Origin: Amphiscolops sp. MND2022
Taxonomy: Eukaryota
Assembly (NCBI GenBank): GCA_964187785.1
Contig: OZ076409.1
Coordinates: 38,256,001-38,320,000 of the forward strand
Reading direction: 5' to 3'
Length of the DNA stretch: 64,000 bases
Part shown: one piece after another, positions 9,951 to 48,100 of the stretch
How positions within the stretch are numbered: the stretch's first letter is position 1
Layout of the letters: the number at the start of each line of letters is the position of its first letter
Translations under genes and position numbers: made by a program
Notes under the pieces: generated by a model
The model's database searches: none
What the model saw: the letters and a program-made list of their open reading frames with translations, nothing else
Told to the model about the DNA's origin: nothing

Positions 9951-10675
9951 TTCTAAAATTTTGAGACCTCAATTCAAAATACTGCGTTTCAACAAAATTG
10001 ATAATTGAAAAATATAACAAAGTTGACAATTTTTAATTCATAAGTCAAACGCCAGTCAGTCGCTTCCCTTTTAGAATTTTTCAAACTATTGCACCACATC
10101 AAGGAACAGTGTTTTTTGTATGAAAAAAAGGTTTTGTATTTGATCAAACTTCGAACATCGCCCAAAATACTGAATTTGCGGTAAAGTGCTTAGTGGAAAA
10201 ACTTTATCTTATACTCATAGCGGTTTTAAGCACTAATTGGGAGCGGCAAAGTGCCATCCATTGGACGCACGAGGTTTTCTTTAACTCCCTGTCCCGAATT
10301 CAGCATGTATTCACACTTGGGATAGGGCAGAGAATCCAAAGAAACTTAAGGAACTTTTTCTAAGCTCAACCTGAATCATTCTTAAAGGTGATAATTTTAG
10401 TGAAAAATTAGGTTAGAAATTTTTCAACAGTCGATATTTGACACTTCTGCATTCATTGCCACATTTGGAACAGATCCCGGCAATAAAAGCAAAATTGGTA
10501 TTTATCCAATACTCTTTTGGAAACTTTTCCTCGACCGAAAATGATTCTAGAAAAAAGTCCCAAATATTCCAATGTCTTAATGAAAGCGAGCGCATTGACA
10601 CAGCGTCTGACAATTTCAAGACACGTCTTCTCACTGAAGAGTTGTAACTAATTCTGAAGATGGTATCGGTATATT

Positions 10676-12811
10676 TGTCACGACCCGCTCCCGGTCGGGA
10701 CTTTTCCTGTTGTGGAGGAATCCCAAAATTCGCAAGGGGGAGAGGTCACGGAAGAGTCACGCAATGTTAAGTATTGTACAATAACTTACCTTTTGTCTAG
10801 ACTGCAGCACGAATTAAAATCTACGGAAGCACTACGTGAAATATCCAAAATGATTTTAAGCAAAATAAGATTTCCGGTTTAAAGTTTTCACACGTAGACA
10901 TTTTTGTTACTTCCGGTTTCAACGGCTGAAAATTCCATGTCAATCTAAATATTAAGAAAGAAAGACATTCATAACACTGGGATCATTTTTCTCCCTTCCA
11001 CACTGAAATGAAAACACTAAAACAATTATTTAATTCCGCGATCCCAACGGAACTCATACGATCTAAAATGAAAAGAACATCAAAATAGTATAGCAGATTC
11101 AATTTGGAATCTAAAGTAGTTGTAAGAAAGCCTCTCAAATTACAGTCAAGTAATCTGAGCAAACTTTTACAACGTTATGACAGCGTCACTCAGATAAACA
11201 AGTAACAGGTATTTCTATTTTTACGGACCAATAGCGTCGCTGCTAAGACCGGTATATTTGCGCTCACACTAGTAAGAAACCATTCCGATGACGTCACTAA
11301 AAATGAATTTAAAGATGGCGAATTTACTCCGAGCTTGCTCCGCTAGCAGCTAAGAAAGCTATACTCAATCTTAATACGTACGGAGCGCTTACGGAGCGAA
11401 TTATAAACCGAGAAAGTTATAGCCAACCTTAATACATAGGGAGCATTTACGGAGCGTTTACGGAGCAAATTGTAATAGATGAAGCTATACCTAATGTTAA
11501 TACATGTAAAACAACCGTGGAAAATTCTAAGACTTAGAGAATATTCTAATACATCAGGACATTCCTGAGAACATGTAGAATCACACTAAAACATTCAAAA
11601 CACTACAAGTTTTCACTTTTTCCATCCGGATTTGTCCCGTTTCGTGATCAACTAGAACATTCGTGTTGCAGATCAGGACAGAAGAAAATATGTGAAACAG
11701 GTGCTCTCTGTTGTTGAAACGGTATTTTATGTTTGTTGTAGTTTGTGATGAATTATGTTTGTTATATTGTTTAAACCAATCGATGCATGTAAATTACAGC
11801 CAGAACATTTAGCTCAATTGTTGCATGTAAATTACAACCTGAAGTTGTGTTTTGTTACAATAACCCAATCCCCGATATGTGCTAATTACTCTCCAGCATC
11901 ATTTGTTTCTTTCTGAAATGTTTAGCACTTTAGTCTAAAATTCATCCGCGGTGTTTCCGTAACCATTTTTGCTTGTCATACTTTTGTTGCGAACGGATGT
12001 TCTTCGCTAGACAGAGAGTGAATCATTGTTCACGTCAGCGTGCCTTTTGCGATAGAAATTCAAACTAGGCATTTATTTTGCCGCCTTTTCCGTGATGAAA
12101 CCGGAAATGGGAGTGTTGAACAAAAATGATTTCAACAAGTACTCCGTAAGGGAATCGTAACTAGGAATTTAAAATTGTGAACAATTAATTAAAGGGTTGA
12201 AATAATATGGATGATTAAGCATTTTGGTTGAACAAAACCGATTTTTAGGATTCCTAGGAATTTTTAGGTGAGGAACAAATGATGCTGTGAAAGTATATAT
12301 ACCTAAGAATTTGTAAATCTGTTCAATCTGTTTCCTGATCTACTCCGTTAACACTTCGTTTCGAAAACCATTTTTCTTTGAAGAATTCAAACCTTTCCAA
12401 AGAACAGTCTCTCTCACGTTCTATCAAAAATGACTACTAGAAGTCAGAAGAGAAAAGCTGTTGAAGAACTAGTTTCCACTGAAATGGAGACCCCAATAAC
12501 TGAGGTTAATCAAAACCTAAATCCCGTAGCGGGGTCAAGTAAATCTCCTAGAGTAACCACTGAAAATCTAGAGGAAATCAAGTCTTCACTAAGAAAGGAA
12601 ATCATGTCTGATCTCACCAAAATTTTAGCCGAAAATCAAAAGGAGATGTTAAAACTAATAGCTGCTCCTGTTAAAAAACAAACTGTCATAGCTACTGCTG
12701 AAGAAACAGATTCTGAGTCCGAAAATATTCCGGAAAACATAACTTCGACACCAATCAAAAATAAAACCACTGCGACTAATCGAAAAATCACCCCGATAAA
12801 TAGTCGTAACA
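10676..12811 (+). repeat. 5' LTR (2136 bp)
   Basis: Near-identical to 24443-26579 (about 5 differences seen by eye); TG...CA ends; TATATATA 12294-12301; AATAAA 12760-12765. Confidence 0.97.
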
Positions 12812-13842
12812 TGGTGACAGGAGTCCTCAATGACTCAACGAACCTCGGAAAGAAGAAAACACGACCGCATCGCCCACAAAGTTTGCCACCCAACGAACGT
12901 CCTTCGACATCACGACTACTCTTCGCTCCCCAACCAGAAATACACCAGCTGCCCCACCTACCCCCAATGCCCAAAGCACTCACTGCATCACTGCCTGTAT
13001 TCGATGGTAAGTCAGAAAAATTCGAACTTTTCGAGGACTTATTCCGGAACAACATAAAAATGTACCCACATCTAACAGAAATCCAAAAAATCAACTACTT
13101 CCACTCACTACTACGAGGCAATGCACTACAGGCATATTGCAACTTAGATGATGCCAAAAAAGATAATTTAGAGGAAGTAATTACGGCGTTCAAACGACGC
13201 TTCGGAGATTTCCAATCTTCTGCCAAAGCGAGATGCGACTGGGACTCGCTACATTTTGACCCAACCAAACAAAAACTACATGAATTTTTGGATACACTGC
13301 AAAAAACGGCTAAAGAAGCGTTCGGCTCTGAAGCACAAAAATTTATAGACAAGGCCATATACGCCAAAATGCCAGACCACGTCAAAAAGATCCTCAACCG
13401 AGCCTACCTCGAGGACAAACCCTATAATGATATTGTCCTACATCTCGAACGAGAGATGCGCCTTAATGGCCTGGGAGCCCCAGACGAAACCACACTAGTA
13501 CCACTAAATACGGTCGACGTCGTCCCACCGGAACCAAAAAAGGAACTCACCCAACGAGGAAGTTGCTTCCACTGTGGCAAACAGGGGCATTATAAAGCAC
13601 AATGCCGCAAATTAAGAAAAGATCGTTACTACGAAACTAAAGCACAGAACGGTGTCCCCAAAACCATTGAACCACCCAAACCAAAGTGCGACACTTGCGG
13701 AAAGCTCCACAAAACCGAGAACTGCTGGTACGGAGCTAACGCGGCGAATGACCCCAGGAAGAAACGTCATGAATTCACAATCCCTACCAGCCAAATCAGT
13801 GAACAACCAATCCCCACTGTTGAAATCCAGCCAAAAAACTGA
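12430..13842 (+). CDS. gag: Gag, 470 aa
   Basis: Capsid-like LPVFDGK..F..FE..F; zinc knuckle CFHCGKQGHYKAQC and a second CDTCGKLHKTENC; starts inside the LTR. Confidence 0.92.
   Translation: MTTRSQKRKAVEELVSTEMETPITEVNQNLNPVAGSSKSPRVTTENLEEIKSSLRKEIMSDLTKILAENQKEMLKLIAAPVKKQTVIATAEETDSESENIPENITSTPIKNKTTATNRKITPINSRNMVTGVLNDSTNLGKKKTRPHRPQSLPPNERPSTSRLLFAPQPEIHQLPHLPPMPKALTASLPVFDGKSEKFELFEDLFRNNIKMYPHLTEIQKINYFHSLLRGNALQAYCNLDDAKKDNLEEVITAFKRRFGDFQSSAKARCDWDSLHFDPTKQKLHEFLDTLQKTAKEAFGSEAQKFIDKAIYAKMPDHVKKILNRAYLEDKPYNDIVLHLEREMRLNGLGAPDETTLVPLNTVDVVPPEPKKELTQRGSCFHCGKQGHYKAQCRKLRKDRYYETKAQNGVPKTIEPPKPKCDTCGKLHKTENCWYGANAANDPRKKRHEFTIPTSQISEQPIPTVEIQPKN
12812..12824 (+). other. Primer binding site, probably tRNA-Leu-like
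   Basis: TGGTGACAGGAGT directly after the 5' LTR; TGG complements tRNA CCA. The tRNA identity is from memory of Leu PBS sequences. Confidence 0.75.
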
Positions 13843-13886
13843 AAACGCCGCGCCTCGGCTTCGGGGAAACGGTAGACGCGAGGGCG
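13833..13886 (+). promoter_or_regulatory. -1 programmed ribosomal frameshift signal
   Basis: A_AAA_AAC at 13833-13839 just before the gag TGA, 6-nt spacer, GC-rich stem (CGCC..GGCG enclosing CCTCG-GCTT-CGGGG). The -1 frame is open into pol. Confidence 0.8.
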
Positions 13887-16800
13887 TACACAATAGAAGA
13901 CCCCCCAAATCGCTACGAAGAAGACTTCATGACGGAATGCAACGAAGAACCGACACAGGACTGGCAACGTCGTTGGAACGTAGGCATGATACTTAGACAC
14001 AATGCACGACACCCAGAAGACCCAACACCACTACCCCAATGGATAACAGAATCGCCCGATAACTACGCGACACTAAAAAGACCCCTACCAGAATCAAAGA
14101 CCGAACGCATTTACATATATGATAAAGACTATAGATGTGATCCATGGGATGAACCAACTATCTATGACACAAACAAACTCTCTTTTAAGATCCAAGTTTC
14201 AAATCCTCAAGCTCAAGTCACCGAGAGTACAACCCTACCAACACCTTTGTCACCAATCCTAAAAAAGACAACACAGTCCTCGCCAACACCCGTCACCACC
14301 ACGTCCACACCAATAGATGCAGAGAATATTATCTGCATTGAGGATAAAACAATATGGTCACAACAAGCAAAAGAACAACGCGGAGTAGCCGACCAAATAG
14401 TATCACCCCCAACAACAGCATCTGAATGGCCAAATCAGAACAACAATCATGAAGACGACGAAGTAACGGAATGCCCACAACAACTGCCATACGATCTCAA
14501 CATCATAAAAGAATTCATACAACATGATAAAGATGACGACTACATTCCGTTAATGTCGGCAATTACCCTCAAAAAGAAGAAAAGAATGCTCTTTATTCCT
14601 CTCGACTTTGAAAACACTAGAATTGATGCATTAGTCGACTCGGGAGCCTACATCAACGTCATCAGTGAAAGAGATGCAGACAAGATACAAACTGAAGCCA
14701 ACACAACCATAATCGCAAAAGCACCTCCGCCCCCTTTCAAGATACAATATGCCAACACAGAACTCGAAAAAGCCCGTGCAACATACACAATGCAATTCAA
14801 AATCGGGGATTACGCGTTCGAGGAGACCTTCATCATCATGACCAAAACATCTTACCCAATCATTGGCCTGGCATTCCTCCGGAAACATTCCGCAATCCTA
14901 GATACTGCACAAGGAACAATAGACTTTCCCAAAATACAAATCACTCTAGCCCTAAAAGATGAAAGACAGAAGTGCAATCCCAAACCCATCACTATCAAAA
15001 CGGAAGAAAAACACACCATACCAGCCCAAACCACACGAATCATCCACGCCTCCATCACCACAAGCAATGACCACTCAATAACTGGGACAGTCCAACCTTT
15101 ACCACAGTTCGACGAAAATGCAAAACTCATAGTAGCCCCAGCAATAACAACAGCCCGAGACAAACGAGTTGCGATAAAAATAGCGAACACCACAGACTTC
15201 CCCTATACAATAACGCCACATACGAAACTAGCAGAATTACAAATACTGAAACCCGAAGAAACGAAATTGATACGAGCAGTAGACATAGCAGCCCTCAATC
15301 TACTCACCGAACATGACGATGTTGTTGCGTACGTTAATGCACTGATGCAAGTTGATTCGTCAGAACAAATAGAAGAGAAATTCTGGTTCCCAACTCCTGA
15401 AAATCCCGGAGATGAATCGGAACACACACCCATCCAACAACGCATTCTACGAGAACTACGCGAACTACAAAGACTAGAAGAACTGGACCCCAAACAAGAC
15501 GAAAAATCTAGAACACAATTCCTCTCGCTATTCAAATGGAATGATTCACTAATAACGGGAGAAGACCGTGAAAACCTAGAGTCCACACTAGTCGAATTCA
15601 ATGACATTTTTGCACGTCACCGACTGGACATCGGAATGAACAACCAGTTCAAGGTATGCCTAACTCCCAAAAACGACAAACCGGTATATACACAGAGTCT
15701 CCCCGTACCCATCAACCTCAAAGACGACCTCACAGTAGAATTGGCACTGATGCACAAATACGGGATCATCACAACCCTCCCATTCTCGAAATATGCCAGC
15801 CCCATCTTCGCGCAACGCAAACCCAACGGAAAACTACGGCTCCTAGTAGACTTACGGAAAATCAACGCCCTCATCTCAGATGACTACATAAACAACAACC
15901 ACCCCATCAGCACCCTCTCAGATGCCGCACAACACCTAGCGGGGAAACAGCTGTTCTGCAAACTAGATTGCTCACAAGCCTATCACTAACTCCAAATGGC
16001 AGATCAAAGGTCAGTAGAACTCCTTGCATTTAATTTTGCTAGTAGAACGTTTGCCTATCGTAGGCTAGCCCAAGGCCTTAGTAGAGCCTTGTCAGCCTTT
16101 TCGAGCTTCATGCGGGAATACCTCGACACCGTCATCAAAGCAGACCAGTGTGCCCAATATGTAGACGACATCGGAATCGCCGCCAACACAACGGAACAAC
16201 TCATCAAGAACATCAGAGCAGTCTTCAAATGCATCCGCAAGGCAGGACTAAAACTCACAATTGAAAAATGCCACTTTGGTGTCACCCAAATCGAATTCCT
16301 AGGAAGAACCATCACACCCCACGGAGTAGCACCGCAAGAACACAAAATCACCAACTTCTTATCAAAAATCAGATTTCCCCGGTCAAAGAAACAAGTCCAG
16401 AAATACATTGGATTCATCAACTACTACCGAAACTACATACCAAGACTGTCTGAAAAAATGATTGGAATGTATGAACTCCTAAAAGCAGATGCCAAAATCA
16501 CCATATCAGAAGAATTAGTCGACAACTTCAAAGCCATCAACGCAAGCCTAGCGGAAGCATGTGGGCTAGCCCTCAGACAACCAGTTGCGGGAAAACAATA
16601 CGTGCTAATGACGGACGCAAGCTTCCGGGCATCAGGTTACGCCCTAATGATAGAAGAAAACGACGATAAAAACTACTCTCCAAACGGAAAACTTTCGCAC
16701 CGGTTGCTTTTGGTTCCCGCGTATTCTCGCCGTCACAACTGAAGATGTCGATATACTGTAAAGAATTCCTCGCAATATATCACGCATTCCTTGAATATAG

Positions 16801-19047
16801 TCACATTCTCTGGGAAACAACACTACCTACACTAGAACTGACAGACAACAGATCAGTAACAAGATTTTTCCAGACGAAAACAACGCCACCAGCTCTCTGG
16901 AATGCCTGTGACTACGTACTCCAGTTCAAATTCCGCATCATGCACGTAGCGGGCTCGCAAAATACAGCAGCCGACTTCCTGTCTCGACTCGAATTAACTC
17001 CAAAAGAGAGAATCCAACTCAAATTGCGAGACGACATCATAACGGCACCTATCGAGGTTAACCTACAGTCTACAGATGTTGCAGACGAAGAACAACTCTT
17101 TTTCCTGCCAGACGAAGAAGAGGAATCAGAACAAGAAATTTTCGCCAGGAAAGCCCTTAGCAAACAACGAGCAATCGACGAAAAGGAACAACAAAACTTG
17201 ACAACGGAAGTCACAGAAACAGTGCACATACCTCTCAACTCAGCAGTATACGCCTTTGGAGCCATCAAGGAAAACGCCCGCATCCGCAACGAACAGGACG
17301 CGGACCCGATATTGAAAGCATTGAAACTACGGCTGCTTCACGAAGAATACGACAAACACCTTCTCAAGACCGAACCCAGAGGACGAAACCTACTACGTCA
17401 CGAAGAAAGAATAATAGTCAAAGACGGAGTACTCATGCGTAAATACTACGGAGAAGATGGCACAGTAACACATCACCGAATCCTCATACCGAAACATATA
17501 GTACCAGAACTCCTATCGACGCTACATGGAAAAATGAACAAACACCCAGGAATAACCAAAATGATTCAGGAAAGCCGAGCAAAGTATTACTATCCGGGAC
17601 TTGCACGGAAAATTAGAGCCTGGGTAATCAACTGCCCAGATTGCATATCCAACAAACGAATCGACACGCGCCAAATACGTCCTAAAATGCTGAGTAATAC
17701 AGAATTCACATTCGGACCAGATGATTGTCTAGAAGTCGATATTCTACCCAATCTACCCTCATCAAACGGCTACAAACACATCATAACCATGATGGACGTT
17801 TTCTCCCGTTATTTGTTCGCATACCCCACTCAAGACATGACTGCCAGAACAGTAGGACGATGCATAATCGACGTTATGACACGTCACTGTTATCTGCCTA
17901 CAGTGATTCTGACTGATAAAGGATCACAATTCCGATCAGATGTCGTGAACCAAATAGCACAAACACTGGACATACGGATTAGTCACGCGTCAACAAAGCA
18001 TGCACAAACAATCGGCATACTCGAAAGAACGCATGCATCTCTAAAGACTTCCCTCAAGATATCAACGGGAGAACGCCGTTCAATGTGGCACAAATACGTA
18101 CAAATTGCAGTAATGAACTACAACACTAGTTACCACGAAAGCCTAGGATGCGAACCAACAACCGTATTTCACGGACGCATCCCGTACAACATCCTAGACA
18201 TCAAACTAGGACTCAAGCCAGAATGGAAAAAAGATGCCAACGAAGACCTAACGGATGAACTACAGAAACAAATAGCTGAGATACATCAATCAGCCAAGGA
18301 CAACCTTATGCAATCATATTTGAAATATAAGCGATACTACGATAAAAAAGCGACAGCAACGCCATTGAAAGTCAATGACTATTGCTATGTCCTGAATCCG
18401 AAGGCTGATAACCAGTCAATGAAGTTCGCTTTCAAAGATTGCATTTGGACAGGACCATATATAGTGGTCAAAGTCCTTTCCAATAACAACTACGTCGTAA
18501 GACGAACAGGAACAAGATACACTCAAACCCTCCATAGAATTCGCCTAAGGCTATATGCGCCCAATCAACGAGTACCTGACGTCACAGTCAAAGTGGAAGA
18601 TCAGCTTCCAGATCCTGAGGTTAAAACAACCCATGATGATTGGTACGCGCAAGCTTGGGAAACCGAATTCGGAGAAGTTCTGTTCGGAAACACATCGGAA
18701 AGAGAAAACGAGGAAGCTACCATCACAGAACTGCCAGCGGATGACGGAGCTACGACGGAACAAGATACAGTTATAACAACTGCAGATGAAAACTTGACGG
18801 CAGAGAACCTCCCTCTGGAAATGAAACGTCACTTAATCTAGATGTCAGCGATAACCCTTTCATAATGACTCCGCCGCCTATAGAAAGCCCTCCCATACCA
18901 CCTACACTACCGCCTATAGTTGTTGGATACAATCCGAGGAAAACGGAAAGATATAATCTACGACCTAATCCTAGACCTAATGTACACCCAGATTTTCGGA
19001 TGCTTGACGCAGTCATCACAGAAGACACATCTCACACTCAAAATTGA
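13833..19047 (+). pseudogene. pol: Pol (protease, dUTPase-like, RT, RNase H, integrase), disrupted
   Basis: LVDSGA, YVDD, TDAS, H..HPG..CPDC, D/TDKG/ER. In-frame TAA at 15987-15989, frameshift in the A-run at 16668-16672, probable frameshift at ~18790-18838 before the RYNLRP tail. Confidence 0.92.
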
Positions 19048-19212
19048 ATGAAAACACTCGACAAGCCAAACCGAACCGGAGAGGCTACGTTAAATTTTTC
19101 AACATCCGACTAAAACTATCTAAACAACAATCGGACAACTGAAGTGCCCAGAAATAATACATGAAGATAATAAATCACATAAAATTGAATACAATAAATT
19201 CAATACAAATGT

Positions 19213-22200
19213 TCAACGGCCAAGAGGCTTACTAAGTCGATGCTTCACGTCCGGATCAACATCGCGTTTCCCAGACTTCTTTTTCTTCTTGGGCGTAACT
19301 CCCACGTCCGCGGAGGGAGAAGTATTTTTCGTAGACTGCCCCTTACGAGAATTGGCCGCACCCTTCCCAGAGGACTTCCAACTCACACTAACTTCCTTAC
19401 TTGTCTGCGCAACAGTAGAACCTGTCTGACTGACTGAAACTTTCTCTTTTTGTGATCCCGCAGGAAGAGGGCAACGTGACACCTGACTGGGAGACTTCAC
19501 TCCTGACTGTACCCGCGATAGACGATTTGTCACATTACGGGCATTATACTCCACATCGAACTCTTTCCGTCGCTCATCTAGATAGGCCAAATACAAAGAC
19601 ACATATCGCTCAGAAAAAGCGTCAGGATCTGCCCGATAGAAATCCTCCCACATGCTGAACCCACCCGAAACGAAGAACGTCCCAGCAGTAGACACGGCTT
19701 TACGTACAGAGCCTAGAGCTTGATCGCTGAAGAGGCCCTGAGCGGAGTAACCAGCACTCATCACATATGATTGTACCAATCGCAAGCAGTCATAAAAAGA
19801 TCTCGGATCCAGGGCACTACCACTCAAATCGAAATCCAAAGCGGGGCAACTCCGAACAGGCATCCCAATGAAAAGACAGCAAAGTTTGAACACACGGAAG
19901 ACCCGATGCCGAGCTTGAAAACCGAAGTCCAACAGAAGATACGCCACCACATCATCAATATTGGTTGCAGACTGCTTCGAACTCGCATGGCTCCTTCGCC
20001 TTTCAACAATAAAGCTAGAATACTCATCTAATGCGCCTTTCGACTCATCCGACGCCAACACTCCGCAAGTTTCCAGAATGCTACACAACCCCGCAAACAG
20101 AGCAAAAGCAGTGCTATTGTCACCCTCAAGCATCAACTCCGGGCAGAAGCTATAAATCCCTTTGCTCACAGCTGATGTTGCACTAGGATTTTTCAACAGA
20201 GTGACAACTAAGCAGTCCAGAAATTCACGACATCGCACCCGAAAAGTAGTGAAATTACTCGTCTTCTTTTCGTTCAGCAAGCGCCCCAACTCATAATTTT
20301 CCAAAAATTCATCGTCAGGAATACTGGGAAACGCTTTCACCTTTTCGACATCCATATATTCCTCCCACTCATGGATCCCGGGGAGACTAGTAGATACGCG
20401 GGTCTTCAATAGCAGGCAATAGACGAAGTTACACACTTCCCCGTAACAATGAAATGCGTAGTCACTCCGTCCTTTCTCCATTTTTCCAAAGTTGATAAAG
20501 ACTAAAACATCAAGAAGCGTCAAAACAGCCCCATACAACATACAATATCCAAGCAATCCAACAAGCCAAGAAGACACACACGGATAGAAGGCGCAAAAAG
20601 ACATAACTCAAAAGGTCGCGTGCAACCAAACCAAATACTCACATGTATCCAGAACGAAACGGAAAAGTCTAAACCGATAGACAATCAAGTCATCGGCCAC
20701 CAACAGCCAATCAGTCCCCTGCATCTGCAAAAACAACATACCAGTAAAAAAAACAAACTCGAACCAACAAGAACAACTCCACGGAGCAACTACGCAAACC
20801 ACAACACTACTATGTACAAAACATAACAAGGAAGAAACAATAACAAAACTAACCCTGTCGGAAGATCCCTTTGCCTCAGGGTTCCCAGTACACCGAATAT
20901 AGGGCCGAATCGAAGACCAAAGATCAATCAAGTCAGTGAGCAGTGCCCGCAAATCTTTGAACTCCACGAAACCCTGGCGGACACATCGACGTAGCACCAC
21001 TTTAGATTCCGTCCATTCTTCGTAGAGAGCACTCTTCAACCGCTGTAGGGTGTAATCGACCACAGTGGTAATCTCGACCATGCCGAAAACATCTTGGTAA
21101 GATTGGCGAATACACTGCAAAATTGTCTCTAAGACGAAAGGCTGGTACACAATAAAACGGTGACTGTCCTTGCGATTGTCGCTCAAAACCCGGAGAAGTG
21201 ACGGACTGACACCCAAGATCGAAAGAGGCATCTTTTCACCTTCCAAACAGCAGATAAATCGAGATAACGGAGTGACTTCAGAATAAGGCACTGGCTGCTC
21301 CAACGACTCACTCCCGATGCAGACCTTTTTCAAATGTTCATCTTCCCAAAATAGAACAAAACATCGTTCTTCAAAGGTGTCCTTTTCAAATTGCACGGAG
21401 TACTCCCGGAAACTGGATATTCCACGAAGCATAGCCCGCATCACGCGAGGAACAATGCCCTGACACAACACTGCCTATAACACCACAGCATACAGTTATA
21501 ACCAGACTCTCTTCAAAAGAAAAGACAGAATGAAGAAACAGAAAATGGGAACTGTCTCCTATTCAAAAAAAAAAGAGAGAGAAAAAGAAGAAACGAAACA
21601 CAAACCATGACTCAGCAAAAAGCTCAAAAAATACTCACCGCAGTCTCTGAACGACTCCATTTCAGTTTGAATTCTGGCTCACGACTACCTAACGTAGCCA
21701 GAAAGTGTCCCCAGAGACGCTGTACTAAGGAAAAGCTACCACCGCTCCGCAACCACTCGCAGATACTGGACACCAGAGTCATAAAGGGCACTTTCGACTC
21801 CACCTTCGCGTGTTTTGGTAGCAAGTCTTCGGGAAACGGATACTCTTCTCCCAAGTCCACAAAAGGCCGCGACCTGAAATCTGCCTCCTGATTGGCGGAC
21901 AGAGTCATGGGCTCCATCAGCTTGTTCAGCACGGGCCAACCCATGTGCAGACGGTACACCACGTCCTGCTCCCAATGCATCCTAGACTCGAAGTGACGAC
22001 TGAACTCTCCGGCGCCCTGAGCTTTCATCGCAACGTCCCGTCTACAGATCCGGCAAAAGAAAAATTTACCGCTTCCACATCTCGAACCGGTAACGAAGTC
22101 ACCAAACACAGGATGAAGTGCCAACATGCGCCGATGTAACAAATTACGGCTACTATATTTCTTTGGAGGCTTCGGTCTGTCCAAACGACTTTCTACCTTC

Positions 22201-23279
22201 TCCACCAGATCGTTAAAGCCTACAACACACAAACCAAAGTTGCCGGGATACTGACGTTATTCTACCGAAACAGACTCCTCTCATAACTGCTACAACTTCT
22301 GCAACAAAATTACCATACGGAAACAATTCGCAAAGCACTCAAACCATGGCTAACCTGATTGCAACTGAACCAACGCCCGCTCCTCCACCTCAGACACCAA
22401 ATGCCGGCCAAATTGAGCAATCTCAGGTGACACAATGCCCACTTCTATCATTGGCGGCACAGTATCGTTCCCCCGAGCACCCTCACATTCCGAAGAAGCC
22501 CGTGCCCACACAGATGAAACCTTCTTCCGTTGCAATTGAGGCGGCGTCTCGAATCTCACGGCAGATCCCCGGAAAGGAAACACTCTCGATCCTATAACAA
22601 CAACCACAATACGAATACCAAAATAAGGACAACCACCCATACCATCGCAACACATACACTCAAAAAGCGGAAACTCTGGAGAAAACTAACCGCTAGGAGC
22701 GTCTTCCTCTTCGTCGCCTCCTTCATTTTCAGACGAGGAGGTGCCTGCCTCACCTCCATGAGGCTCCTTTTCCAGACCAAGCCCAGACGAAAGCATCCCG
22801 GACAACTCTGGGAGTGCAGTCCTCGAAACAGAAACAGAAGCATCTGGCTCAGCTACATCTTGGCCAGAGAGCGGTGTCGTCAGCGTCTCGTTAACAGTAT
22901 TGCCTTCAGGCAAAGAGAACACAGAACTAACGGGAGGTAAAGCCGAGGAAGAAGCCAACAAAGGCAATTCCACAGCCCCGTCAGGAAGACGAGCAGAAGA
23001 CACGACAACCGAACTGCTACCAGGTTGAGCTACTGAAAATCAAGATCTGGTTTGACGCGTCAGAGTTACGGGTAAGACTATAAAAGGCTGATCACCAAAA
23101 GAGTAGTCCAATTGCCCATGAGAGTCAGAAAGATTTTACCAACCTGAAGAAGTAACTGGTATCTCAGCCTCAGAGTGGAAGGCATCATTGTCAGTGAAAC
23201 AAAAAGTGGTTTCATTACCACTAACATGTCCAGACTGAGGAGCAGGAGTAAGCGGAGGAAGGTCGGAATTATCTTCCAT
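19213..23279 (-). CDS. Antisense spliced accessory gene, ~1095 aa, zinc finger plus hAT-transposase-like body; exons 23279-23144, 23032-22691, 22591-22355, 22219-21639, 21474-20854, 20724-20643, 20501-19213
   Basis: Six GT-AG introns (111, 99, 135, 164, 129, 141 nt), all phase-compatible, give one stop-free 3288-nt frame. CRIC-x16-H-x5-H finger; C-terminal PKKKKK. Confidence 0.85.
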
Positions 23280-23808
23280 TCGTCAACAGCAATCTGAAAA
23301 AGAAAGAAACAATCCTCACTACCCTGCTATAGCAAAAGGAAAGAAACATCAACCCCGGGGATGCATCGGAAAAGATATTAAGAAGAACACTAGAGATTGA
23401 AGAAAGAAAATGCATCATCCTTTTTCCCTCGCATTTAAGCAAGATATGATATTGACGGAAGTATATCGCTTCCAAAAGGAAAAAGAAATCAAAGATTAAA
23501 TTTGACCTTTCAAATGTCCTAAAAAGAAAAAGATCATTTCCCTAATTAATGACGTCACACGGATCGCTCTCGGAAAAGAATTGGTGACGCCATGATGAAG
23601 TTCAAAATTAGAAACTTTATTCATATCGGTTCAGCAAATCACAGCGCAGATAGAAGCGAAACGTTTCCGAAGGAAAACGAACCGGAATAAAAGAAAAATA
23701 ACAGCCAATAGGAATGCAGGAAAATTACGAACGAAAAGGAAGTTGACTTTTTCATTTGCCGCATCCCGAACGTGAAGTTAAGATAGCTGAAATCTTCAGA
23801 ATTCAAAA

Positions 23809-24537
23809 ATGAGCAATTACGAACTCGTAATTGATATCTCTTCTGATGAAGAAGAAAACGAAGTCAGGCAGAGCACACCCATCAAAACCCTCCCACTAAA
23901 TGGGATCACAGTTCTGAACCTCTCCGAAGCCTCCTTAGAAGCTACAAAAGGCAGCGCAGAAGAGATGATGGACTCAATCAATAGTCTAAATTTATCCGGC
24001 ATCTCAGCGTCTACATTTGAGACTATCGGTTCACCAAGAAAAATAAACTTCGTCACTACAAGCCCTGGCGAAGCTTTCATAGTGGAAGGGCATAGTACTG
24101 AAACGTCTGAAGAAAGCTATTTTGAAGAGCCTGACACTCCCCGTCAACTGCCCCCATTACAGCCTGCCCCAGTCTTACGGGATATGACCAACGGAGAACT
24201 TTCGCTCAACGAGCCGCCTACAAAAATTGATCGGCTTGACGATCTAACGGAGCCTACTATGGAAGATATAGAGAATGTCTATGGCATCGTTTTGCAGAGC
24301 AGCTCAGAGTTCAACTCACTATGCGGACGTGGGGCCCGTTTCACCTCCACAAAGCTGACAAGAGCTCGCAAGCAGCCTGTGCTCATCACAAGAGAGATTC
24401 CGCACTGCCCCCGTCCCGTGTCAACAGGCTATAGAGGCGCCCTGTCACGACCCGCTCCCGGTCGGGACTTTTCCTGTTGTGGAGGAATCCCAAAATTCGC
24501 AAGGGGGAGAGGTCACGGAAGAGCCACGCAATGTTAA
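23809..24537 (+). CDS. Accessory ORF, 242 aa, acidic and S/T/P-rich, function unknown, ends inside the 3' LTR
   Basis: ATG in A-rich context, long open frame, N-terminal LVIDISSDEEE, last 95 nt inside the LTR. Confidence 0.65.
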   Translation: MSNYELVIDISSDEEENEVRQSTPIKTLPLNGITVLNLSEASLEATKGSAEEMMDSINSLNLSGISASTFETIGSPRKINFVTTSPGEAFIVEGHSTETSEESYFEEPDTPRQLPPLQPAPVLRDMTNGELSLNEPPTKIDRLDDLTEPTMEDIENVYGIVLQSSSEFNSLCGRGARFTSTKLTRARKQPVLITREIPHCPRPVSTGYRGALSRPAPGRDFSCCGGIPKFARGRGHGRATQC

Positions 24538-26579
24538 GTATTGTACAATAACTTACCTATTTGTCTAGACTGCAGCACGTATTAAAATCTACGGAAGCAC
24601 TACGTGAAATATCCAAAATGATTTTAAGCAAAATAAGATTTCCGGTTTAAAGTTTTCACACGTAGACATTTTTGTTACTTCCGGTTTCAACGGCTGAAAA
24701 TTCCATGTCAATCTAAATATTAAGAAAGAAAGACATTCATAACACTGGGATCATTTTTCTCCCTTCCACACTGAAATGAAAACACTAAAACAATTATTTA
24801 ATTCCGCGATCCCAACGGAACTCATACGATCTAAAATGAAAAGAACATCAAAATAGTATAGCAGATTCAATTTGGAATCTAAAGTAGTTGTAAGAAAGCC
24901 TCTCAAATTACAGTCAAGTAATCTGAGCAAACTTTTACAACGTTATGACAGCGTCACTCAGATAAACAAGTAACAGGTATTTCTATTTTTACGGACCAAT
25001 AGCGTCGCTGCTAAGACCGGTATATTTGCGCTCACACTAGTAAGAAACCATTCCGATGACGTCACTAAGAATGAATTTAAAGATGGCGAATTTACTCCGA
25101 GCTTGCTCCGCTAGCAGCTAAGAAAGCTATACTCAATCTTAATACGTACGGAGCGCTTACGGAGCGAATTATAAACCGAGAAAGTTATAGCCAACCTTAA
25201 TACATAGGGAGCATTTACGGAGCGTTTACGGAGCAAATTGTAATAGATGAAGCTATACCTAATGTTAATACATGTAAAACAACCGTGGAAAATTCTAAGA
25301 CTTAGAGAATATTCTAATACATCAGGACATTCCTGAGAACATGTAGAATCACACTAAAACATTCAAAACACTACAAGTTTTCACTTTTTCCATCCGGATT
25401 TGTCCCGTTTCGTGATCAACTAGAACATTCGTGTTGCAGATCAGGACAGAAGAAAATATGTGAAACAGGTGCTCTCTGTTGTTGAAACGGTATTTTATGT
25501 TTGTTGTAGTTTGTGATGAATTATGTTTGTTATATTGTTTAAACCAATCGATGCATGTAAATTACAGCCAGAACATTTAGCTCAATTGTTGCATGTAAAT
25601 TACAACCTGAAGTTGTGTTTTGTTACAATAACCCAATCCCCGATATGTGCTAATTACTCTCCAGCATCATTTGTTTCTTTCTGAAATGTTTAGCACTTTA
25701 GTCTAAAATTCATCCGCGGTGTTTCCGTAACCATTTTTGCTTGTCATACTTTTGTTGCGAACGGATGTTCTTCGCTAGACAGAGAGTGAATCATTGTTCA
25801 CGTCAGCGTGCCTTTTGCGATAGAAATTCAAACTAGGCATTTATTTTGCCGCCTTTTCCGTGATGAAACCGGAAATGGGAGTGTTGAACAAAAATGATTT
25901 CAACAAGTACTCCGTAAGGGAATCGTAACTAGGAATTTAAAATTGTGAACAATTAATTAAAGGGTTGAAATAATATGGATGATTAAGCATTTTGGTTGAA
26001 CAAAACCGATTTTTAGGATTCCTAGGAATTTTTAGGTGAGGAACAAATGATGCTGTGAAAGTATATATACCTAAGAATTTGTAAATCTGTTCAATCTGTT
26101 TCCTGATCTACTCCGTTAACACTTCGTTTCGAAAACCATTTTTCTTTGAAGAATTCAAACCTTTCCAAAGAACAGTCTCTCTCACGTTCTATCAAAAATG
26201 ACTACTAGAAGTCAGAAGAGAAAAGCTGTTGAAGAACTAGTTTCCACTGAAATGGAGACCCCAATAACTGAGGTTAATCAAAACCTAAATCCCGTAGCGG
26301 GGTCAAGTAAATCTCCTAGAGTAACCACTGAAAATCTAGAGGAAATCAAGTCTTCACTAAGAAAGGAAATCATGTTTGATCTCACCAAAATTTTAGCCGA
26401 AAATCAAAAGGAGATGTTAAAACTAATAGCTGCTCCTGTTAAAAAACAAACTGTCATAGCTACTGCTGAAGAAACAGATTCTGAGTCCGAAAATATTCCG
26501 GAAAACATAACTTCGACACCAATCAAAAATAAAACCACTGCGACTAATCGAAAAATCACCCCGATAAATAGTCGTAACA
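24443..26579 (+). repeat. 3' LTR (2137 bp)
   Basis: Direct repeat of 10676-12811, followed by the TSD ATATT. Confidence 0.97.
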
Positions 26580-29422
26580 ATATTCAATACCTTCGAAGTA
26601 ATTATACAATGCTTTCGAAGGAAAGACTTTTTCGGACAATGATTCTTTTTCCACCCTACCCCCCTTTAATACACCTCGATTCGGATGCCCATAAAAAGAG
26701 CATTTTATTCGTGAAAAGATTGTTTCACGGATAACAGATAAAAGCACTTTTTATGGTTACAAAGACTTAAATACTTCGATGATTGTCTCTACAGCTGTGT
26801 TGGCGCATCGAACTAGATTCAGAAAAACTAGAAAGAAATAGGCCAATTTACCTAACTCCAAAAGGCTGTAAAATCGTGTAAAACTGCATTTGAGCGCTAC
26901 TTTCAACCCAATGGACATATTTTGACCCAAATGAAAGATTTAGACTGAAAAAGTAAAAATCGATAACAAAACATTTTAAATTCTTGTCTTCCGTCCCATT
27001 TTGGATTCCCTTTCGAAAGTCAGTGTATATTCGGACTTTATTCTGTTTATTGTACCTAACTTGTTATGAACACCAAATTTGAGCTACGTGGGTGTCAGCA
27101 AGACACATGAGTATTATTTGCAAACCTCGTTGATTACTTGTGTATATAACATGTGTAAACCTATGCCTAAATCATGCTTAAATGTCTGCTTTTCGTATTA
27201 ACTTTTACATATATTGATACATGCCTACAACTCAGATAAGTATTTTGTTCCAACTCACTTTACATATCAAGGCGCTTGTATGATGATAGTAAAGTTAACT
27301 GCAAACATTCGTCATGAGTTATTTACTGTGTGCTAAAGTAACCAGAGTTGACTCCAAAATTCAAAACCAAGTAGAGATCCAAATCGGTCGACTTTCCTAC
27401 TCAGGTATTGAAGAAAGTGGAAGCTTGGAAGTTTCTCGTGCAACCAATTCAGTTAACTCTGGCTATTGAAGAGCTTTTTCAGAGTTGAACAAGTGATATA
27501 CTGTTTCGAAATTCCAAAATCAATGAACTTATATTGCATTAATTTGCTATATTTTGGCTTGAGAAAGTTATCGTGGACGCAAGGATTTGGTCTTATCGTT
27601 TGGTTTAGCAGATCAATCACACTACCGCAGATCGAAACGCCTAAGTTGATTCTTATAGTCACGGTTTGGAAATTCAAAGTTACTTCGTTTGTGAAACAAT
27701 AAGTGCAAAGTCAAAGATGCAGTATTTGCTTCACGGACTTCAGAAACTTATTCAAAGTAACGCCAGCTCATCTTTCAATTCGAGCTAGATGCGATTTCAT
27801 CTATTCAAAGTCTCGAAAACCAGAAACCTGTTAATTCCTGATAGCCAAGGAAGAGGGCTCGAAATAGCTATTTTTCATTGCTTTATCACTGCCGGGAGCT
27901 AAGGAAGAACAAATTTACAATGTTATTCCCAAAACGTATCTTCATATCATCGTCCTATCCATAGGAGGTAACAATTTATTTGCTGTAACGTCAGAAAACT
28001 TTGTTCGACAGATATCAGATCTTGCAAATCTTTATTAACCAAAACCAAAAGGGTTTTTGTACTTGGTATACCTTTAAGCCACTCTCAACCTCATCTACTA
28101 GTAGCAAAAAATAATTCTTCACTGACTTCTCGTCTAGGAGGCTGGGAATTAACAGTTTCCAGTTACGTGTTTAGTAATATGCATTTAAAAAATAATAACG
28201 TTCATTTGAACTCCAACGCATTGAGTTTAATCACTTATATTCTGAAAAGCAAGATACTTTACAACAGATATTGCCCAGAGATTGCAAAGGACATCTCAAA
28301 GTTATTGTGTGATTGTGTGTAGTGGATTTTGCGAATGACTTTCCTGGACAAATCAGTTTTAGAATTGTTCGCAAGTTGTCAACCAAATTATCCAGACGGA
28401 TATTTTTCTGACAAAATAGCAAAAAATCACGCCTTGAACAAGCCGAAATTGCATGGAAAGGCACCTATTTCAACGCAAATTTTCCGGCGCAACTTCCGGC
28501 GTAAATTAAAATTAGCGATTTTCAACTGTGAATCAATGTCAAAGATAGGATTATGTCGACATCGATTATAGTGGACCAAAATTTCATCGCAAAACGATGC
28601 CGACATGGTATTCCCAGCGTGTTTCTTACCCCAATCGCCCCAAGACCGCTTGGGGGAATAAAAAACACAGCCCGCTTTTTCTCGTCGGCTTACTTTTTTT
28701 CAAATATAGATGGAAAATGTTTTAGCGCATTGCGTCCTGATCAATGTCAAATCTTGAACCGAAACAAACTTGGTCGCTTCTTTGACAGCCCAAACGGTTG
28801 TGCAGTTTCTAGTCCATTAAATTGATTGCGAAGGTCATTTGATGATATTAATTTTGTGGTAAAACATCAAAATATATGCTACTCGATAATTTACGCCGAT
28901 GAAAATTTAATTTTGAATCAATGTTATATAAACCATACTACTAGAAGAAACGTGTTTCAACTCCAATAACCAAGAGGTTTCTCAGTATCTATGAACTGAC
29001 TGAAGTTGAGCCAGATTTGTGGCAAATGTGCTTGATTACGTAATTGATTCCCAGCTATTGTCGAGTTGGAGTTCAGATGTAACGGTGGAAACTTCGCGAT
29101 GCAATCACTCGAAGGTAAGAAACTTTAAATATAAAACCTTTTATTCAAAATAACCTCGAAGTAAATTTACCTACCCGCAAACCCGATGAAGACAAATGAC
29201 TGACAATCATTACGTAACTCCAGCTACAAGGAAATCTTGTTCAATTATCATCAGCAAAAATAAGTCATTTTCAAACAATCTAATTAAGTAGTAACAGAAG
29301 TAAATTCTTCATTTGCGGTGAGCTGAGTTGATAATTGTGACACTTCGAAAAAGCTTGGAAGATTTCATGGTGGAATTAATCTATTTTTACACAATTTACA
29401 AAAAATCCTCCATCTTCATGGG

Positions 29423-45125: not shown

Positions 45126-48100
45126 TCAGACAACAGTGAGTCGAGGTATTTCCACCGGATTGGCCGCTTGTATGACGAGCCCCTCGTATTCCTGGATTTG
45201 TCGTCTTAGAGATTCAGCCGCCTCCTGCATCAGTACAACATCCATGCCGTCTATCCTGAAAAATATGTGATATTTAAGGTCAACATATTGAACTCTAGTC
45301 AAAATATTTCAAGTCAAACATAGCTGAGGTTTGTCGAGTCCGTTTGGAAAGTGATAAATATGTTTAGTAATAACCGAAAAATAAAACCACTTGAAAATAA
45401 AAACTACCGCCACATCAACTATTAACAGACCGATACTGCTGCTATCATAGTTGCCATCTTCTGGTCACTTCGGAACAGAGGCTTGTAAACTACGTGAACA
45501 CTAAATACAACTCCAAGAATAGAAGGAACAAGAAAAGAATGATTTAGTCGCATGCAACATTTTCTAGCATTTGTATTGCCATCTCAAAATCCCTGATTTT
45601 CAAAACTTGATTTGAGTTAAATTTGAATAGTTGATTGTATTTACTCTTCATACCTTTTTCGTCTAGTAGTAGAATTATTCACTGACAAAGAAGGCTTCAT
45701 GATTTCTTGCAGTTGCTTTTAAAATCAAAATTGGCTTGAGAAACATAAAAGCTCAATTATTTGGAGCATCGAATTTGGTGTGATACTGCAGTGGTGATAG
45801 GCATCACAGTCACATTACAAAACACCTACAAAAGCACTCATGATTATATTGTAAAAAAGACCAAAAAACATCCCAAAAACTTGAAAACCTTCGAAAAAGT
45901 TTTACGTGATAGAAATAAATCCACAACATGTATTACAGCAACTGAATATTCTGATTAAAAATTACTGAATTAAAAATATTAAATTTAAACTTGAAGTCAA
46001 GCAAGTAACTTAACTGGGAAAACCCTTGATTCGAATGCTGGTGAAATTATAACGAAATAGCGGAGCACCAAGGCCCAGAAAAAATTATAATTGCGCATAC
46101 AGTGAAACACGTAATTGCAACTCGCCTAATTGCATACTTTGCTTTATTACAAACAAGGTGAAATCCCCAGGTGAAATTTTTGCTTAACTTGTTACTTTGG
46201 CTAATAACAAACTTCGTCTCATAGTGGGTTTTCCGCTCAGTCCCAAGGTGTTGCAATTCCCCGAGTTCCACTGTACCGCTCTTGATGGTACGAAAACCAA
46301 CAACGTGCATGGTATTGTCGAGGGTCAGTTGAAAGTTGATGTAAGGGGGTAAATTTATCGAGATGTAAGATGTGTAAAAATCATTTCTAGCCGCGCGAAA
46401 AACCAAACCATGTTCAATATTGATTATTGAAGAGAAGCGTTGAACTAACTTGGTGTAATGATGAAGGTTTGCTTTTCTGCGATACAACTTCATGAATCTG
46501 TTCTCAAGGTTCTCGAACGTGTGTCTGATGCAAAGATTGTTTGACAGATTCAAAAGACTGTAAGGAAGTCCAACTGGGGGAACCGAACAAATTCCAGTCT
46601 TCCAGCCTTCTTCATTCCAGTAAATGAACCGTGTTTGCTTCCTCATTCTGCGAAGTATCAAAATACAAGTAAAAAAAGATGCTGTCATGTTTTTCGATCT
46701 TTCAGGTTTCGGGACTTTCATTGACAAAGGAATAAATCATCACTTCTATTTTTTAAACTCTCCGTGTCAAAATAGTTAGCTTTCAACGGTAGAGTTATGA
46801 CAGTAATTTCATGAGTTTAAACGGCAATCAATTTCACACCGAAAAAGTTTTGGAACATCGAAGGGACGAGAGTGTTTGAATGGAACCTTTCAATGTTTCT
46901 TCTCATATCTGACAGAGTAACATTGGATCCGCGAACCAGGAGAGCACAGGCCAGGTAAGTGTTATGCTTGGGGTCAGCTTCTAGCAAATGATACTCGCGG
47001 GAAAAAGAGTTCGTGAACATCAGATCCAAATTGCGCGAAGGTAGCTGCAAACAAAATAAGCTATACTGTTTCTACTTTTCGCATCAATTTAAAAATTCTC
47101 ATCGGTTTTATGACAAAAAAATGCAAGTAAAAGTTCTCATTTATTGTTCAGGGTTAACAGCCTCAAGTTTGTCGAATTCCTTGGCAATCAATAGATTCTA
47201 GGCTTTACAAAATGAAAGTTGGAAATTTTTTTCGAACATCTTGTTTCGAAACGACAAATAGTCTTTGTCCGGGAAACGTTGCTCTTGTTCACGCTAAAAA
47301 TTACAATTTTGTAGGAACACAGAGATTTATCGCCAAACAGTAAATTCAAAGAAAAACGTTCGAATACACTTCAATACATTTAATACTGATTCAAAACGTT
47401 TGGGATCGAAGACTTGAATTCAAATTCCGAGAAAAAAAATCAGAATTCGGCGGAGGCCAATTCAGCAATCGCATACTATTTTCTATGTAGTGTGAGAGTG
47501 GTATTATTTAGTGAAACATGGACGCCGATCAGCAACAGAGGAGGACACTCCCAAACAAATCCTTCCTATTCCCGGAACGTATATTCACCGACAAAAGTTC
47601 TGCTCTTCATGACTTTTAGTTGAAGACAGAAAGTATGTCTTTTTTGCGAAGAGAAAAGTTGACCGTCAGAAATGAGAAATGTGGAATTTACAGCTGCAGA
47701 AAGAATTTATTCACACTTTTATCTTGAACAACTGCTGTCATGCTGATAAAAACTAATTGAAAGTGAACTTTTTTAACCCGTTCTCGCCACAAATAACGGC
47801 ACTGATGGCAATTATCAAGAAACTTTTGTCATTTTCAGTGTTTCCAAAAAATCTCTAGAAAACGAACTTTTCAGAACAGCAATGTTTCGTAAGAACTTCC
47901 ACATAAAGAAAAGCCACTATGCCCATCTTAAAACATGGGACGATAAGGACAATTCAGTTTCTTCTCATTTTTTTTGTTTCGATATATTTTTTGAAAAACT
48001 TGTGAAAAAGAACTTGTAGGTTAGATTGAGAGCTGCCGGAGGTATATTATCAAAGTGGCATTCCTTGCTTCAGCAACAAAAATTATCACTGAAACATCGC

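Follow-up and report, generated by a model that had tools for sequence, protein, structure and literature searches.

A conserved antisense gene with six predicted introns in a family of animal Ty3/gypsy-type retrotransposons

Can a retrotransposon carry a multi-intron gene of its own, and if so, what kind of gene is it? The question is raised by a 64,000-nt stretch of the genome of Amphiscolops sp. MND2022 (contig OZ076409.1 of assembly GCA_964187785.1, positions 38,256,001 to 38,320,000 of the forward strand; hereafter the window, in whose own numbering positions are given), which contains a 15.9-kb Ty3/gypsy-type long terminal repeat (LTR) retrotransposon at 10676-26579. Between pol and the 3′ LTR of this element, on the strand opposite to gag and pol, lies a series of open reading frame (ORF) fragments that an earlier note, made from the letters of the window, had joined through spliceosomal introns into one gene. 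We compared this antisense gene with its copies and relatives across the genome (1.07 Gb in 1929 contigs), which, as befits an animal, has 43 matches to the nuclear-receptor zinc-finger domain and none to WRKY. Our analyses indicate that the antisense stretch is very probably a selected, spliced coding gene, and that it is likely to be a real coding gene of the retrotransposon itself, situated antisense between pol and the 3′ LTR of an animal Ty3/gypsy-type element. We take the gene to be real because it is conserved among sibling copies, is subject to purifying selection and keeps its intron positions.

An antisense frame conserved among copies of the element

Seven minus-strand exons, running from 23279 to 19213, are joined by six GT-AG introns into a single frame of 1095 amino acids (Table 1). 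The joined exons comprise 3288 nt, that is, 1095 codons and one terminal stop, with no internal stops. Each acceptor AG is preceded by a T-rich tract, and the introns are T-rich with a G+C content of 34-43%, as compared with 49.5% in the exons. This model reproduces exactly the in-phase frame that the earlier note had assembled from minus-strand fragments and a first exon, including the same six donors and intron lengths of 99-164 nt. The note had also placed an intact antisense gene at the position of env and had held that it is not env, with which our findings agree: the gene is antisense rather than a sense-strand frame, it lies between pol and the 3′ LTR, and env-type Pfam families are absent from scans of its exons. 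The sole weak match to a membrane protein, Claudin_2 (E 0.008), falls in read-through of intron 6 and not in an exon. A candidate acceptor in the 5′ untranslated region, 14 nt before the ATG, was dropped, as it is not conserved in distant relatives.

Exon 7 is found at an identity of at least 96% in 34 places in the genome, the window included, and the junction between pol and the gene is kept at 34 places. Frames were checked in 12 full copies that occupy ranks 11-22 of the exon-7 list (98-96% identical), nine closer partial loci being excluded. All 12 copies align across the whole 4.3 kb, and all 12 splice sites are identical letter for letter in every one of them. The joined frame is open in nine (eight of 1095 aa and one of 1097 aa), the defective siblings being one with a premature stop and two that are frame-shifted. 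The earlier note had reasoned that siblings lacking the region, or showing neutral decay, would speak against the gene; the gene is held by 12 of 12 siblings, with the frame preserved in 9 of 12.

Comparison with the subfamily that is 96% identical to the window copy revealed the pattern of change expected of a coding sequence in the proposed frame. Exons have diverged by 3.0-3.5% and introns by 4.7-5.7%, and substitutions are distributed over codon positions 1, 2 and 3 as 27/19/68 (chi-square p = 1e-8). Non-synonymous changes number 45 and synonymous ones 69 (binomial p = 6e-17), and the ratio of non-synonymous to synonymous rates (dN/dS) is 0.18-0.22. The corresponding ratio of proportions (pN/pS) is 0.20 in the proposed frame as against 1.27 and 1.50 in the shifted frames, scored over the same columns. 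Specifically, pN/pS is 0.06 in exon 4, 0.04 in exon 5 and 0.20 in exon 7, and 0.5-1.2 in exons 1-3, where changes are few. In pol of the same elements it is 0.03-0.05 in five of six pairs, and 0.50 in the sixth, which involves a copy with a frame-shifting indel. The core of the gene (exons 4-5) is constrained as strongly as pol, and the N-terminal third hardly at all. A dN/dS below 1, one of the tests that the earlier note had proposed, is thus borne out, at about 0.2 overall and 0.04-0.07 in exons 4-5. Because selection in a transposon family acts only on lineages that are still copying, the low dN/dS between subfamilies implies that the elements with a working gene are those that spread.

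Conservation of intron positions, another of the proposed tests, extends well beyond the close copies. Six relatives (L023-L028) with 66-68% DNA identity carry the gene at the same place, and in all six it is flanked by antisense pol (80-90% protein identity) on one side and by orfX, an additional frame considered below, on the other. All six intron positions persist in these relatives: 68 of the 72 splice-site dinucleotides are present at the aligned positions of the window (of the other four, two are donors that read GC and TT, one is an acceptor that reads CG and one is deleted), with the interiors of the introns diverged. In L024 each exon differs in length from that of the window by 0 or a multiple of 3, and intron lengths vary freely.

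Homologues more distant still were recovered with single exons as queries. An exhaustive HMMER search with exon 7 returned 516 proteins at E <=0.001, and the matches listed do not exceed 500 aa; the ten clusters looked up for exon 7 consist of ENA records, as do the 57 homologues of exon 5 and the 99 of exon 4. These records are calls of single-exon ORFs, and in 16 of 20 displayed homologue rows for exon 4 the similarity ends exactly at the exon 4 donor. Two of the distant homologues, P0001 and P0012 (47% and 36% identical to exon 7), are encoded in the same genome (at 100% and 98%, respectively), where a first look gave 7396 and 7088 candidates; 80 of 97 scored matches for P0001 and 75 of 98 for P0012 are without a stop. 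Judging from these sequences, the gene is a hallmark of a large and diverse set of elements within this one genome.

The base composition of the gene is that of the element in which it resides. The sense strand of the element is A- and C-rich, with third positions in pol of A 0.40, C 0.27, G 0.16 and T 0.17. Read on the same strand, the third positions of the antisense gene are A 0.34, C 0.31, G 0.19 and T 0.16, and its introns A 0.46, C 0.25, G 0.14 and T 0.15. The host flanks are unbiased, and the element (12000-24000) has an AT skew of 0.25-0.36 and a GC skew of -0.12 to -0.29; the bias runs unbroken over the antisense gene and peaks in its introns (46% A). At its silent sites the gene has thus come into equilibrium with the mutation bias of the element, which argues against recent capture. 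We consider it highly likely that the gene is an integral module of this clade of elements.

We note that the elements look mosaic at this locus. In six elements a 93% match to the pol end continues as far as about position 19100, roughly 110 nt past the antisense stop codon, where similarity is lost. At G000:C4:75893897-75898575, a reverse transcriptase region 98% identical to that of the window is accompanied, at the expected distance, by an exon 7 of a different type (a 422-aa frame). The sequences suggest that the gene cassette may have been exchanged between element lineages.

Several observations weigh against the reading of the stretch as a working gene. Its transcription and splicing are predictions, the gene model resting on conservation, and no canonical AATAAA or ATTAAA occurs on the minus strand in the 500 nt past the stop codon. 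None of the six distant copies is intact, one having an internal stop and five having lost the frame. The pairs from which dN/dS was computed share ancestry, such that the eight 96% copies amount to about one comparison, and exons 1-3 are near neutral, so the true start could lie further downstream. Finally, both of the homologues that were traced to a genome (two tested) map to this same genome.

The element and the flanks of the gene

The element is a Ty3/gypsy-type LTR retrotransposon by its LTRs, its target duplication and its domain order. Self-BLAST revealed an LTR pair with 99.77% identity over 2137 nt; the repeats begin with TG and end with CA, and a perfect 5-bp duplication flanks the whole. 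Pfam domains follow the Ty3/gypsy order of gag, protease, reverse transcriptase, RNase H and integrase along 12382-18841. With LTRs 99.8% identical the element is young. The stop-to-stop gag frame opens inside the 5′ LTR (430 nt, 12382-12811) and crosses the LTR end and the primer-binding site, and the frame therefore appears again at the end of the 3′ LTR, at 26150-26734. Two defects interrupt pol in the window copy, an in-frame stop at 15987-15989 and a frame change of one base near 16670. Neither defect is present in any of 29 sibling copies, 19 of which are open across the 4.1 kb examined, so that either pol of the window copy was damaged soon after insertion or this copy was made from a defective template helped in trans. 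Tandem repeats within the element are limited to one small array in pol, and Rfam and tRNA scans of the whole window gave no matches.

Table 1 Features of the retrotransposon and of its antisense gene in the window.
Feature	Position	Strand	Remarks
Left target-site duplication	10671..10675		ATATT; identical five bases at 26580-26584
5′ LTR	10676..12811	+	2137 nt, TG...CA, by self-BLAST; AATAAA at 12760
gag frame	12382..13842	+	Pfam DUF1759 E 1.8e-9, Retrotrans_gag E 1.3e-3; CCHC knuckle in translation
Probable primer-binding site	12812..12829	+	TGG start immediately 3′ of LTR; candidate by sequence alone
pol	13824..18841	+	Pfam Asp_protease, RVT_1, RT_RNaseH, Integrase_H2C2, rve
Exon 1	23144..23279	-	Start codon 23279-23277; ATG kept in 5 of 6 distant relatives
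Intron 1	23033..23143	-	111 nt, GTTGGT...AG; unusually conserved
Exon 2	22691..23032	-	Ser/Pro-rich, acidic; pN/pS about 1.2 on 13 changes
Intron 2	22592..22690	-	99 nt, GTTAGT...AG
Exon 3	22355..22591	-	Low-complexity N-terminal region; weak constraint, pN/pS about 0.5
Intron 3	22220..22354	-	135 nt, GTTAGC...AG
Exon 4	21639..22219	-	Most conserved part; CxxC-x16-H-x5-H zinc-finger motif; pN/pS 0.06
Intron 4	21475..21638	-	164 nt, GTGAGT...AG
Exon 5	20854..21474	-	207 codons; RNase H-like strand/helix order (model); pN/pS 0.04
Intron 5	20725..20853	-	129 nt, GTTAGT...AG
Exon 6	20643..20724	-	82 nt; 82 nt in 5 of 6 distant relatives, 81 nt in L025
Intron 6	20502..20642	-	141 nt, GTGAGT...AG
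Exon 7	19213..20501	-	428 codons and stop; all-helical domain, basic C-terminal tail with KKKKK run; pN/pS 0.20
Spacer, candidate promoter region	23280..23808		529 bp between divergent starts of antisense gene and orfX
orfX	23791..24537	+	248 codons, first ATG 23809; extends 95 nt into 3′ LTR
3′ LTR	24443..26579	+	By self-BLAST; 3′ junction shared by 18 other copies, together with 957 nt or more of LTR
Right target-site duplication	26580..26584		ATATT; directly after 3′ LTR

The spacer between the antisense gene and orfX contains a palindromic octamer, TGACGTCA, at 23550-23557. Eleven of 12 close copies have this octamer about 278 nt upstream of the antisense ATG. In four of the six distant relatives, whose spacer otherwise cannot be aligned by BLAST, the distance is about 297-305 nt. 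On these grounds the spacer is a candidate internal promoter, and one that may be bidirectional. The product of orfX is acidic and has no Pfam matches. The frame adjoins the antisense gene in all six distant relatives, as assessed by tblastn, and is very variable (30-58% identity); in five of 12 close copies, whose antisense gene has 96% identity, the DNA is similar only as far as 23900, roughly 90 nt inside the frame.

The 5′ end of the antisense gene is conserved in a manner of its own. The region 23020-23279, which extends from exon 1 through intron 1 and just into exon 2, is 75-82% identical to the distant relatives, as compared with 54-58% for introns overall, and synonymous change in exons 1-2 is one third of that in exons 4-7. 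This conservation points to a function that would be exerted at the nucleotide level on one of the two strands. In a consensus fold of exon 1 and intron 1, both partners had changed in 1 of 63 pairs, so that covariation was not seen. Within 23020-23279 the sense strand has a donor-like GGTAAG that is conserved.

Two further features of the window lie outside the element. Three tandem copies of a 3.86-kb unit, 96.5-98.2% identical to one another and containing integrase-like frames (Integrase_H2C2, rve), occupy 51986-63542 and appear to be a tandemly amplified fragment of another retroelement. On the minus strand at 46047-46736, a frame of 229 codons matches the tubulin C-terminal domain over a short distance (E 3e-8) and may be an exon or a pseudogene fragment.

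The predicted protein

A Pfam scan of every exon frame identified no family at E 0.01 within the exons. In the motif encoded by exon 4, each of the residues C55, C58, H75 and H81 is shared by 90% or more of 41 aligned sequences, and five of the 41 give weak C2H2-type Pfam matches, the best with E 0.039. A structural model of exon 5 based on 47 sequences (mean pLDDT 62) has the order beta1-2-3, alpha, beta4, alpha, beta5, and the best match to it found by Foldseek is the hAT transposase Hermes (E 5.7e-4), chains of which account for 10 of the 14 best rows. The model of exon 7, built separately, is all-helical and more confident (pLDDT 75.8, and above 90 over residues 10-210), and has no clear match: Foldseek found none in PDB or BFVD, the best score in the ESM Atlas was 0.79 with nothing useful, and the maximum Z in VIA-align was 5.0, with Hermes at rank 7 (Z 4.8, 181 residues aligned at a root-mean-square deviation of 8.4). 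Longer, annotated homologues of exon 7 did not appear, which by the nature of the method is weak evidence. The C-terminus of the protein is basic and disordered. These models suggest a nucleic-acid-binding protein whose domain order recalls that of a hAT transposase, probably without catalysis.

The transposase-like reading of the protein is nevertheless a weak one, on several counts. The exon 5 model is of low confidence, and VIA-align places general RNase H-like folds at the top for its residues 23-112 (Z 5-6.6; Pelota, sugar kinases, Hsp70, Argonaute and reverse transcriptase RNase H), with Hermes not among the first 50 rows. PDB sequence profiles for exons 4, 5 and 7 gave nothing below E 0.1. 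The hAT dimerisation and BED families of Pfam are absent from the exon frames at E <=0.01, and from the 41 exon 4 and 47 exon 5 homologues scanned to E 5. As mapped from a low-confidence model, no acidic residue is conserved just past strand 4, and only 5 of 42 sequences retain the SER-like motif of exon 7. Around the gene, 18700-24500 contains only short low-complexity inverted matches in place of terminal inverted repeats, and no 8-bp target duplication was found. The gene shares with Hermes and other hAT transposases the order of zinc finger, RNase H-like core and helical domain (predicted, on the side of the window gene). Unlike them, it has no conserved catalytic acidic residues, hAT Pfam domains, inverted repeats or 8-bp duplication that we could find, and it moves as part of a retrotransposon. 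Derivation of the protein from a hAT-like transposase is, on the strength of the models, conceivable but somewhat doubtful.

Origin, role and precedents

How might such a gene work within the element? We propose that it would be transcribed leftwards from a promoter of its own, likely within the 0.5-kb spacer where it stands head-to-head with orfX, and that its six introns would be removed by the host spliceosome. Translation of the mRNA would yield a protein of 1095 aa, in which exons 1-3 encode an N-terminus of low complexity and loose constraint. Exon 4 would contribute the CCHH zinc finger, exon 5 an alpha/beta domain with the topology of RNase H-like folds, and exon 7 a large helical domain; with its basic tail, which resembles a nuclear localisation signal, the protein would presumably be nuclear. 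The packaged RNA, in contrast, would be the sense strand, in which the introns are present as reverse complements, are not spliced, and would be inherited by every new copy. The introns would be kept through retrotransposition because the sense genomic RNA holds them in this form, as the earlier note had argued; consistent with this notion, dispersed copies on other chromosomes all retain the introns. The protein would serve the spread of the element itself, for example as a nucleic-acid-binding regulator, a targeting factor or a counter-silencing factor.

Other explanations of the locus differ in what they make of the frame and of its origin. The antisense strand might act only as RNA, for instance by pairing with the genomic RNA and so feeding small-RNA silencing, with the long frame incidental. 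Any antisense transcript from here would be fully complementary to the genomic RNA of the element, and antisense non-coding RNAs are described for micropia and other retrotransposons (PMC7264820). Against this stand the signals at the level of the protein, namely the codon-position pattern, the low pN/pS in one frame only, the frame-preserving indels and the conserved zinc-binding residues, which together leave an RNA-only role scarcely credible; a role of the RNA may exist in addition to that of the protein. Recent capture of a cellular gene, taken up in antisense orientation and of no use to the element, would account for a protein that has no retroelement-type domain in Pfam, and LTR elements are known to capture genes (PMC7264820). 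Captured genes sit in one or a few copies, according to the same source, whereas the gene considered here has at least 34 near-identical copies, occurs in lineages whose protein identity falls to 36% and gave first-look candidates in the thousands, and pol adjoins it in all six scored genomic copies with readable flanks. The silent sites share the strand bias of the element, and the failure of a longer annotated cellular homologue to appear is weak evidence in the same direction. We regard such a capture as very improbable.

A closer competitor is a nested DNA transposon, that is, a hAT-like element that inserted backwards in an ancestor and whose transposase gene rides along, or still transposes, with no service to the retrotransposon. 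DNA transposase genes commonly contain introns, and such an origin would fit the order of zinc finger, RNase H-like core and large helical domain, as well as the likeness to Hermes, which ranks first in Foldseek for exon 5 and matches exon 7 weakly. There is also one report, from beet, of a multi-exon transposase gene within putative LTRs (PMC2426827). Yet only the short low-complexity matches described above surround the gene where inverted repeats would be expected, and conserved DDE-like residues were not seen. In addition, exons 4-5 are constrained like pol and the gene is linked to pol in every lineage examined; constraint of this kind over lineages that are 36-60% identical in protein is not expected of a mere passenger. 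As an account of the present state of the gene we consider the nested transposon quite improbable, but as an account of its origin only it is compatible with a gene that now belongs to the retrotransposon.

The layout of the locus has precedents. The plant elements Grande, RIRE2, Retand and PvRetro13 have been described as carrying an antisense gene at this place, between pol and the 3′ LTR, and so has the fungal element Boty, whose gene is brtn (PMC7264820). The earlier note was therefore correct that antisense ORFs are known from the plant Ty3 elements Retand and Grande, and it went too far in presenting the locus as an undescribed system. The plant ORFs are given as being of unknown function, with a regulatory role proposed and, for Grande, a promoter of its own and a nuclear protein (PMC7264820, PMC11963269); the word "intron" is absent from both of these papers. 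The window gene has in common with Grande gene23, RIRE2, Retand (TRP28) and PvRetro13 its position, its orientation and its presence in most copies of the family, and differs in its animal host, its six conserved introns, its larger product (1095 aa) and the lack of a match to Transposase_28 or any other Pfam family. As in the class of antisense additional ORFs termed aORF-3R, the frame lies between pol and the 3′ LTR, antisense to gag-pol, and is present in most copies (34 places, 12 of 12 full copies and 6 of 6 relatives). No relationship to TRP28/PF04195 or to the SMC-like aORF protein emerged from Pfam scans of the exons and of the 41 and 47 homologues. The gene thus appears to resemble the aORF-3R class without homology to a described member, brtn being compared by description only. 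That gene is an extra antisense gene of Boty-like gypsy elements in Botrytis and Sclerotinia (PMC7264820, PMC8365987), and so is likewise an extra antisense gene of a non-plant Ty3/gypsy element, albeit in a fungal host.

More remote parallels are provided by retroviruses and by a plant composite. The main HBZ mRNA of human T-cell leukaemia virus type 1 (HTLV-1) is spliced. Like other retroviral antisense genes, HBZ lies antisense near the 3′ LTR and encodes a nuclear regulatory protein, but it has one intron, a bZIP product and a promoter within the LTR, whereas the window gene has six introns and an unrelated protein. An antisense promoter in the 3′ LTR of HTLV is noted in PMC7264820. Coe1 of Beta vulgaris combines an eight-exon gene for an En/Spm-type transposase with putative LTRs and the remains of a retroelement alongside (PMC2426827). 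It is a one-off plant composite with a pseudogenised reverse transcriptase, in contrast to the multi-copy and recently transposing family of the window with its conserved linkage. No animal example and no multi-intron example of such an antisense gene was found in the literature, in a search that was thin on subscription journals, and the accessible parts of papers on env-carrying elements of rotifers, annelids and metazoans mention none. The earlier note, which knew of no multi-intron equivalent in animal elements, is accordingly borne out within the reach of that search. The antisense layout is of a known kind, and the family is set apart by an animal as host, by six introns conserved to great depth, by a large and possibly transposase-like protein and by its scale.

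A bolder proposal, which we hold to be unlikely in its entirety, is that a large and still active clade of animal Ty3/gypsy elements has permanently recruited a catalytically silent, hAT-derived zinc-finger protein as a spliced antisense accessory gene. The spread of the elements would depend on this protein, through the choice of integration sites or counter-silencing, for example, and the cassette would be exchanged between lineages by recombination at the end of the transcription unit.

Additional genes in retrotransposons provide one of the few views of how such elements cope with their hosts, and even in plants decades of work have not revealed what the antisense genes do. The family described here offers unusually clean material in this respect, being a young, many-copy animal family with a gene whose core is constrained like pol, a recognisable zinc finger and a possible transposase ancestry, and the six introns provide ready-made splice-junction assays. 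It also shows in nature how introns can come through retrotransposition when they are placed in reverse orientation, a trick of engineered retroviral vectors. If the link to transposases holds true, mobile elements of one class would here have domesticated an enzyme that belonged to another.

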